From IMG/VR virus record IMGVR_UViG_2648501165_000020: 22,254 nucleotides of DNA. The stretch is one strand, 5' to 3'. Below, piece by piece: positions 21,001 through 22,254 of this stretch. The DNA comes from a virus. Taxonomy: Duplodnaviria > Heunggongvirae > Uroviricota > Caudoviricetes. The position numbers are program-made. Position 1 is the first letter of the stretch, and every line of letters starts with the position of its first letter.

Positions 21001-22254
21001 TGCCGTTGAATACGGGGATGAGTTGACTGGTCATGATGACCTCCTTATTTGTTTAGTTTATAACCGCCAGTTAGTAGCTGGCGGTCGGGTGTCAACTGAG
21101 CCAAATAAGAAGCTCTGGGCATATTCCCCTTGCGGGTGTTGTATTACGCCTCTCCACCCGACCTTTGTACGGATGTAACTATGCCAAATTGCAGGCATAA
21201 AAAAGCCGCAAAGCTATCGGGTGCGGAGACCGCTTATTTGTTCAGTGCGGTCAGTATGCGATAGCTCTGGAGGATTTGTCAATCAGCGGAATATTGATGA
21301 ACGGGTAACGGTAAATGCCTCATCCAGAAAATTAACGCAAATTCGCATCGCAAACTTGCGTTAATTATCTGAAATATCAAGTTAAATCCCCTTAAATGTT
21401 TGGGGCACTATTGGGGCAAAATGTGGTTGTTTGGGGCATATTTGGGGCAAAAAAGAACGTATAAAGAACGGTGTAAAATTGATTTCTTCATGGTCAAAAT
21501 GAGGTGTAACAGATTGAAAAATATATGCTCTTGGACGATCTTCGGTAATTCTGTGTTTTTAATGCTTCATGGTTTCAATATGTCCGTACATGGAATAATA
21601 AAGCACCAGAACTTTAGCCATTTCTAACCACTCCTCGTGTTATCTCTATTCCGTAGCGATTCGCTACCACTTATTTAAAGATAAGACGTCCTTTTCAGAG
21701 TGCAAATTTCACAACCACTTATTTGATTTATAACAACTTTCACAAGCACGTAATTTTGTCGCAAAATGACACATTTTTATCTCATCGCGTTTTTTTAATC
21801 ATAAGAGCGGCTTATGGATAATTATTTGAGATGATATCTATTCTCGCTAAGAAGCTGTTGCAGGATATTACCAAACGCGGGTCTGCCCGCGTCAGTTCAC
21901 TAAGCTTAGTCCCACGTAGCGAAAATATGGCAGCCGCCATACGCCGCGTTAATTCTATGCAATATGATGTCTATACCCAGACGGAGGTCAGTAATGGCAA
22001 ACCATCGAGGCGGTTCCGGCAATTTTGCAGAAGACCGCGAAAGAGCATCAGAAGCAGGTAAAAAAGGTGGACAGCACAGCGGGGGTAATTTCAAGAATGA
22101 CCCGCAGCGCGCATCTGAAGCAGGTAAAAAAGGTGGNNNNNNNNNNNNNNNNNNNNTCAAAAAGTCATCACCGCCGGTAATCCCGGCGGTTTTCTGTTTA
22201 TGGCTCCTGATGAACAACTTCTGGCGGTGGAACGTCAACCAACTTTCTGCTTAA

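Follow-up and report, generated by a model that had tools for sequence, protein, structure and literature searches.

The window, i.e. the whole stretch of DNA that was analysed (22,254 nucleotides; IMG/VR virus record IMGVR_UViG_2648501165_000020), comprises the right arm of a prophage, an attachment-site core and the adjoining host DNA with the start of wrbA, the wrbA-ymdF intergenic region and ymdF (Table 1). The 21.5 kb of phage DNA share 99.6-99.7% identity with VT2-Sakai, Stx1 converting phage, Stx2 II, Stx2a_F422 and the PA-series Stx2a phages, which marks them as a right arm of the 933W/Sp5 type; by record and region, the identity to Stx phage genomes ranges from 99.6 to 99.9%. No single public record is exact over the whole window, and 54 mismatches to the best records are scattered over positions 1-19469. 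The matches to phage records end at 21571-21584, according to where each record was cut. The circular genome of Stx1 converting phage (AP005153), which is 99.95% identical over 19622-21584, runs from there into int and thus contains a continuous attP.

Table 1. Features of the window around the attR junction, and the corresponding att sites in other genomes
Feature	Position	Strand	Description
Prophage right arm	1..21571		Tail-fibre genes, lom, hok/sok, 8.4-kb LPD38/LPD5-domain gene, Ea22-like genes, ant
AntA/AntB-type antirepressor homologue	20405..21034	-	Last prophage gene before attR, 209 aa; Pfam AntA, E = 3.7e-27; P22_AR_C, E = 6.1e-9
sRNA-Xcc1 family RNA element	21075..21163	-	Rfam RF02221, 69.1 bits (gathering score 53), E = 6.6e-11
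Phage arm of attR (P arm, lambda convention)	21258..21571		Module common to 933W-type (Traversvirus) and O104:H4-type (Oslovirus) wrbA-integrating phages
Imperfect 22-bp palindrome	21325..21371		19 of its 22 positions pair around a 3-nt centre
Four exact direct TTGGGGCA boxes	21400, 21411, 21431, 21442 (span 21400..21449)	+	Candidate arm-type integrase sites
Remnant ORF wrbA'	21559..21621	-	ATG start, 20 codons: WrbA residues 1-18, then the phage-arm codons for K and H and a TAA stop
Imperfect 17-bp common core, attR	21568..21584		CATgGTTTCAAtATGTC; from the four-way alignment
Strand-exchange (overlap) segment, 7 bp	21572..21578		GTTTCAA; same in attB, attP, attL and attR
Host wrbA-ymdF intergenic region, including wrbA upstream	21622..21993		Intact; 1 difference from K-12 (21827, T vs G)
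Host ymdF, KGG-repeat stress protein	21994..22136	+	Pfam KGG, E = 4.5e-15; 3' end masked by the N-run 22137-22156
attB core			CATcGTTTCAAtATGTC; K-12, identical in the empty site of O157:H7 MB41-1; wrbA codons 14-18
attP core			CATgGTTTCAAcATGTC; AP005153
attL core			CATcGTTTCAAcATGTC; AP000422, identical in UTAK-1 and in the Stx2a lysogen NZ_CP119187.1
attL hybrid wrbA	UTAK-1 (L007) 35656-36234; NZ_CP119187.1 (L014) 29304-29882; Sakai (L003) about 1-620		

Two runs of N interrupt the sequence. The 152 N at 19470-19621 stand for about 469 bp of the ead/Ea22-like gene in Sakai, AP005153 and NZ_CP119187.1, and the 20 N at 22137-22156 for 72 bp in UTAK-1 (3' end of ymdF plus spacer). The runs do not preserve length and window coordinates to their right are therefore shifted against real genomes. 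We rejected the idea that they hide something relevant and regard them as masking artefacts.

The terminal antirepressor-like gene is annotated as H0160 or 'antA/AntB antirepressor family protein' in the reference records. The sRNA-Xcc1 element is located 41 nt upstream of it on the same strand, and related stretches are found in many Stx phages that integrate elsewhere as well as in Vibrio phage VHML. The 530 bp from this last phage gene to the core are non-coding; a sigma-70-like promoter match is located here at 21282-21253 on the minus strand. A plus-strand ORF of 75 aa (21400-21627; 'ORF B44' in AP005153) was treated as spurious, AP005153 being a record in which every ORF is annotated. 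Further to the left, a sok antitoxin RNA (18596-18770, minus strand; Rfam RF01794, 112 bits) adjoins a Hok/Gef family gene and forms a type I toxin-antitoxin locus with it, and a second Hok/Gef CDS is annotated still further left in the collinear records. More than a third of the window is taken up by a single 8.4-kb gene for an LPD38/LPD5 domain-containing protein of about 2790 aa (about 9000-17400, plus strand; collinear with L015 5385-13766), which is conserved in 933W-type phages and for which the annotations state no function.

The phage arm next to the junction was delimited by a BLAST search against distant phages, in which the homology to Oslovirus begins at query base 219, corresponding to window position 21258; an alignment of seven sequences was also made. 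Within this arm, the starts of the four TTGGGGCA boxes are spaced by 11, 20 and 11 bp, and the boxes lie 172 to 123 bp from the overlap segment. They are the only exact copies in the 22 kb, the mean in shuffled sequences being 1.06 and four copies being reached in 0 of 100 shuffles. The int side of attP has further copies, counted from the overlap: one at +70, one at +81 with a single mismatch and an inverted one at +185, likewise with a single mismatch. In AP005153, a repeat described as 'arrangement g; region III' covers most of the box stretch (window about 21397-21435); it is duplicated in AP004402 (Stx2 converting phage I), where a 31-bp tandem duplication results in six boxes in this 933W-type arm instead of the four found here. 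The boxes are candidate arm-type sites for the N-terminal domain of the integrase, which is their most probable function in view of their clustering and of the arm-binding domain of the integrase. Across arms that share 91-95% identity, the whole segment 21400-21584 is nearly invariant and conservation therefore does not single out the boxes. In phi191, two boxes contain single-G deletions, for which sequencing errors in G-runs are a possible source. The imperfect palindrome to the left of the boxes carries one double change (G-C to A-T) in the diverged arms, which preserves the symmetry. The IHF consensus WATCAANNNNTTR had no match in the window, and an IHF site is therefore not proposed.

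At the end of the phage arm, window positions 21568-21584 almost certainly represent the attR junction of a lambdoid prophage of the 933W/VT2-Sakai (Sp5) type that is site-specifically integrated at the 5' end of E. coli wrbA. For the definition of the core, attR of the window, attB of K-12, attP of the circular Stx1 converting phage (AP005153) and attL of Sakai (AP000422) were aligned in register. The attP and attB cores are identical at 15 of 17 bases. The two differing positions bracket the overlap segment: in attR, the base to the left (21571, G) is of the phage type and the base to the right (21579, T) of the host type, whereas attL shows the reciprocal combination with a host-type C on the left and a phage-type C on the right. 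Since the mismatches segregate reciprocally, strand exchange is confined to GTTTCAA at 21572-21578. Such a common core with reciprocal segregation of the flanking differences is one of the features expected of an attR of the lambda type, and by lambda convention this attR is the int-distal junction. The junction, its core, the bracketing mismatches and, in related genomes, the reciprocal attL with int and xis are direct observations. On the sense strand of wrbA the overlap reads TTGAAAC and covers the third base of I15, the whole codon E16 and the first two bases of T17. The sequence by which the 3' part of wrbA would join phage DNA at attL is CATCGTTTCAACATGTC, and the sites expected from excision are CATGGTTTCAACATGTC for attP and CATCGTTTCAATATGTC for attB.

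The overlap is also present in database annotations: 6-7 bp are listed as an attachment site or as an insertion duplication in AP000422, AP005153, AP004402, LC645429 and LC645427. The label 'attachment site' is used in AP005153 (locus 24892-24898, equivalent to window 21572-21578) and AP000422, and the label 'duplication due to insertion' in LC645429 and LC645427. In attP, short inverted CATG elements are found on either side of the overlap (…TTCATG|GTTTCAA|CATGTC…), and we infer that these are the core-type integrase sites.

In this explanation, a phage tyrosine integrase with an N-terminal arm-binding domain paired attP (CATgGTTTCAAcATGTC) with the chromosomal attB (CATcGTTTCAAtATGTC) and exchanged strands inside the 7-bp overlap GTTTCAA. 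The upstream region of wrbA and its codons 1-16 thereby remained joined to ymdF at the attR end; phage DNA follows, keeping T17 and M18 by chance, until the frame ends with K-H-stop. The remaining part of wrbA would be found at attL, beyond a prophage of about 57-63 kb, adjoining int and xis.

The first-pass annotation of this DNA had claimed a minus-strand ORF with the first 18 residues of WrbA followed by KH-stop, and the ORF listing together with the translated wrbA gene of K-12 (b1004) bears this out: the ORF agrees with WrbA at every residue from 1 to 18 and departs from it at residue 19. The start had been placed at 21620, one base short of the true first base, 21621; the divergence at about 21567 was correctly located, as this is the first base of the K codon (21567-21565), which is followed by H (21564-21562) and the TAA stop (21561-21559). 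The last one or two WrbA-like residues of the ORF are encoded by phage-derived bases. In attR, T17 reads ACC instead of the host ACG, a synonymous change, and its third base and M18 are phage DNA mimicking wrbA, which is why the ORF reads as WrbA through residue 18. An interruption of the gene at codon 18-19, as proposed before, accordingly describes where attR diverges, but the four-way alignment puts the exchange segment itself in codons 15-17.

On the host side, alignment to an unlysogenised wrbA-ymdF region, the comparison suggested earlier for the junction, is collinear from 21568 onward, with 551 of 553 bases identical to K-12 over 21585-22137 in a single register. The attB flank is thus in the native order of K-12, which is wrbA (minus strand), ymdF (plus strand) and then rutG. 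The ymdF gene is the 174-nt allele with two KGG repeats that is also found in K-12, O111, O45 and the UTAK strains, whereas O157 strains have a shorter one-repeat ymdF (108 nt by PGAP annotation in MB41-1). Because of this K-12-type allele the lysogen is not O157:H7, despite its Sp5-like phage arm; judged by the flank, it is either a laboratory lysogen or a strain outside O157. Over 21300-22136 and over the last 98 bp, the window agrees at every base with UTAK-1, which differs from it between 17.6 and 20.5 kb. These last 98 bp match UTAK-1, but not the records of PA11 (NZ_CP119187.1), K-12 or Sakai. Over 19622-22136, NZ_CP119187.1 has one mismatch to the window. The exact junction had no match in the species-representative genome collection.

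According to the annotation of collinear stretches (the window maps to AP000422 41367-63925), the window contains no integrase, no stx and no 3' part of wrbA. That stx and the integrase lie outside had been stated by the first-pass annotation, and its suggestion to look for a matching attL and integrase at the other prophage end was followed in related genomes. The window holds the attR end alone; in all three related genomes (the Sakai record, UTAK-1 and NZ_CP119187.1), the reciprocal attL is present 57-63 kb away beside a tyrosine integrase and an excisionase, and two of the three prophages carry Stx2a. For the source genome of the window, we infer the same left end. In AP000422, int lies at 583-1917 and xis at 1946-2245, after an att site at 555-561; att sites are annotated at both ends and wrbA is described as 'divided by the insertion of prophage', in agreement with the earlier placement of an attR junction inside wrbA. 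The Sakai integrase is a two-domain recombinase with an arm-DNA-binding domain (PF12167, E = 6.3e-26) and a tyrosine recombinase domain (PF00589, E = 2e-17), and Xis matches PF06806, a putative excisionase. The integrase is intact in the three genomes (436-444 aa), and that of Sakai is identical to that of UTAK-1 at 436 of 436 residues over their common length. The gene order in UTAK-1 is excisionase, tyrosine integrase, wrbA', yccJ and agp, and the distance of this block to the attR position is about 57.6 kb. For the attL core of NZ_CP119187.1 the distance is 62.7 kb, and its prophage encodes the A and B subunits of Stx2a. The stx region is located outside the window, and it differs between relatives: Stx2a is present in the best-matching lysogen, NZ_CP119187.1, whereas no stx CDS is annotated in the close match UTAK-1. 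The wrbA prophage of UTAK-1, with the same int, xis, attL and attR, represents an stx-negative relative at the same site. In this strain (L007 15839-16370), 530 bp extend from tRNA-Arg to a DUF6645 gene at the position that is occupied by the Stx2a A and B genes in NZ_CP119187.1.

The attL end gains from the phage arm an ATG, in overlap with the stop codon of int (ATGA), together with 11 codons, which gives rise to a WrbA hybrid of 192 aa (MINHILRHVETMARA…). PGAP calls this hybrid an intact wrbA, without a pseudogene flag, in O157 and other lysogens; the RefSeq record of Sakai also has a feature 'wrbA: pseudogene' at the attL locus. The hybrid is devoid of strand beta-1 (KVLVLYYS) and of most of the phosphate-binding loop of the flavodoxin fold. 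By comparison with the known fold, the 192-aa variant is probably inactive because strand beta-1 is missing.

The distribution of the junction was studied with an 838-bp probe (window 21300-22137) against 5426 complete E. coli genomes. In 5418 of them its host part was matched, and about 5200 genomes align only from window position 21568 onward, which held for every genome sampled outside the 214 that match in full. The attR-type junction is matched across in 214 genomes, and 216 carry the attL-type junction. The site is intact in 5129 of the 5418 genomes, and about 70 genomes have no intact site and yet no Sp5-type junction. A second insertion point in wrbA is located about 22 bp nearer to the start codon, at codons 6-8 (2188-2194 of the K-12 locus L001, equivalent to window 21600-21606). 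In OkiPb01714 and 873.10 (L016 and L017), the wrbA homology ends at these codons, beside a 'recombinase family protein' gene and phage genes, and thus at least two different att sites exist at the 5' end of wrbA. The 'recombinase family' genes at this second site are probably serine recombinases.

Three other explanations of the junction have to be weighed. The 18-residue match to WrbA might be due to chance or to a wrbA-like fragment borne by the phage, and not to an interrupted host gene; the attP arm does contain a wrbA-like 17-bp core, identical to attB at 15 of 17 bases, and phage DNA mimics part of wrbA. However, the chromosomal identity runs on for 553 bp past the core (551/553), through the wrbA upstream region and into ymdF in native order and orientation, while free phage genomes diverge completely from the window directly after 21584. 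The probability of this explanation is practically nil, as it is already refuted by the att alignment and the comparison with K-12; the fortuitous N-terminal match that the first-pass annotation had named as a possible flaw is not what was found. Insertion by another mechanism than a lambda-type tyrosine integrase, i.e. transposition with target-site duplication or a serine recombinase, could be argued from those records that call the 7 bp a 'duplication due to insertion' and from the elements with serine 'recombinase family' genes that insert about 22 bp away in wrbA. Against this, the gene beside attL codes for a tyrosine recombinase (PF00589) that contains an arm-binding domain, and its neighbour is an excisionase, circular phage genomes have a continuous attP in which the same 7 bp are flanked by imperfect homology, and the mismatches are reciprocal, as is expected of conservative exchange and not of duplication. 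We regard this explanation as extremely improbable.

The remaining alternative, which accepts the junction as genuine, is that the prophage is defective or rearranged, with int, xis and attL at its left end, or else its stx region, lost or replaced, and that attR is a non-working fossil. The left-end genes are indeed absent from the window, which is itself a mosaic without a single exact record; the content of the relatives varies, with UTAK-1 having no stx CDS and 530 bp from the tRNAs to the next CDS; and several records have Ea22-like genes that are partial or carry frameshifts. But each of the three genomes examined with this attR has the matching attL, an intact integrase of 436-444 aa and an excisionase. 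Moreover, genomes of the attR type (214) are almost as numerous as those of the attL type (216), and the attR core and arm in the window are intact. Taken together, a defective prophage is very unlikely, and site-specific integration by the tyrosine integrase is the explanation we adopt.

Among known systems, the attR of VT2-Sakai in E. coli O157:H7 Sakai (Sp5; AP000422, and 'prophage Sp5' in NC_002695) is the closest, being 100% identical over window 21040-21590 and thus across the junction. It has the same core, overlap, KH-stop remnant ORF, terminal ant-like gene H0160 and right-arm gene order, and differs by 54 mismatches in the first 19.5 kb and by the short one-repeat ymdF of O157 in place of the 174-nt two-repeat gene found here. 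The 933W phage of EDL933 (Stx2 converting phage I, AP004402; Traversvirus tv933W) shares both the attB and the attP core, and the integrase gene next to its attP is of the same type (1335 nt by annotation in both records). In the O104:H4-type Stx2a phages (P13374, phiON-2011 and TL-2011c; Oslovirus) and in O26 Stx1a phages at wrbA, the attP arm is 91-95% identical between about 21258 and the core and all four boxes are kept, the first one as TTGGGGCG; upstream of 21258, however, these genomes are unrelated. As this arm is shared by otherwise unrelated phages, the int-attP module behaves as a swappable cassette, which PMC11333237 also states with regard to integrase replacement.

As judged from sequence, the system resembles the lambda attR (POB', with Int, Xis and IHF) in its heterobivalent tyrosine integrase, in an overlap of 7 bp that has short, imperfectly inverted core sites on both sides (..CATG|GTTTCAA|CATG..), in the direct repeats that cluster in its arms, and in the position of int and xis beside attL, attR being the int-distal junction. 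In contrast to lambda, the arm-binding domain belongs to PF12167 and not to the family of the lambda Int N-domain, attB is part of a coding sequence, the window has no IHF consensus and the core is 15/17 with mismatches, whereas that of lambda is a perfect 15 bp. The candidate arm-type boxes would offer a convenient entry point for dissecting this integrase.

The wrbA upstream region retained at attR is intact and faces the prophage arm, in which the sRNA-Xcc1 element and ant lie on the same strand. In a joint reading of both ends, integration would rewire wrbA and not simply break it: attR would direct the wrbA upstream region with a 20-codon leader toward ant, and attL would provide the 192-aa variant. 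If this were true, the stress-induced wrbA upstream region could tie the expression of the antirepressor to stationary phase. The TTGGGGCA boxes, for their part, would be the first arm-type sites to be defined for a PF12167-type integrase of Stx phages. We consider this combined reading unlikely. On the minus strand from 21621 to 21034, a simple scan did not detect any terminator, while RNA folding predicted a hairpin followed by the U-run GCGGCUUUUUUAU at about 21228→21198 on the minus strand. This hairpin with its U-run would probably stop a transcript, and read-through from the wrbA promoter into ant is for this reason unlikely and was discarded.

The integration site as such is already known, having been published for 933W and VT2-Sakai/Sp5, and the window adds no new information on integration; AP000422 (GenBank, about 2000) already annotates the split wrbA and the att sites. 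The first-pass annotation had named wrbA as integration site of 933W-type Stx2-converting phages, which agrees with the GenBank annotation and with a preprint (10.1101/2022.08.08.503262), where the site of 933W in K-12 is given as CATCGTTTCAATATGTC, the same 17-bp attB. As reported there, 933W was lost from EDL933 and re-integrated in K-12 at the same 17 bp. wrbA is a standard locus of Stx phages (PMC11333237, PMC8309913, PMC4645166). Its occupancy is a routine typing marker for Stx2a prophages in O157 and non-O157 STEC, and the junction therefore places the window as the right end of an Sp5/933W-type prophage with its host flank. Beyond this, the details of practical value are the location of the exchange segment in codons 15-17, the non-O157:H7 host flank and the reinterpretation of a reported mutation. 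After the loss of 933W from EDL933, a 'point mutation' G25>A (V9I) was reported in wrbA (10.1101/2022.08.08.503262). Nucleotide 25 of the CDS of the 192-aa hybrid is the G of codon 9 (GTT), at the position of window 21579 (T in attR, C in attL), and excision restores the host ATT, i.e. I15 of native WrbA. The reported V9I is therefore the change expected from precise excision (attL to attB) and does not indicate an altered attB.
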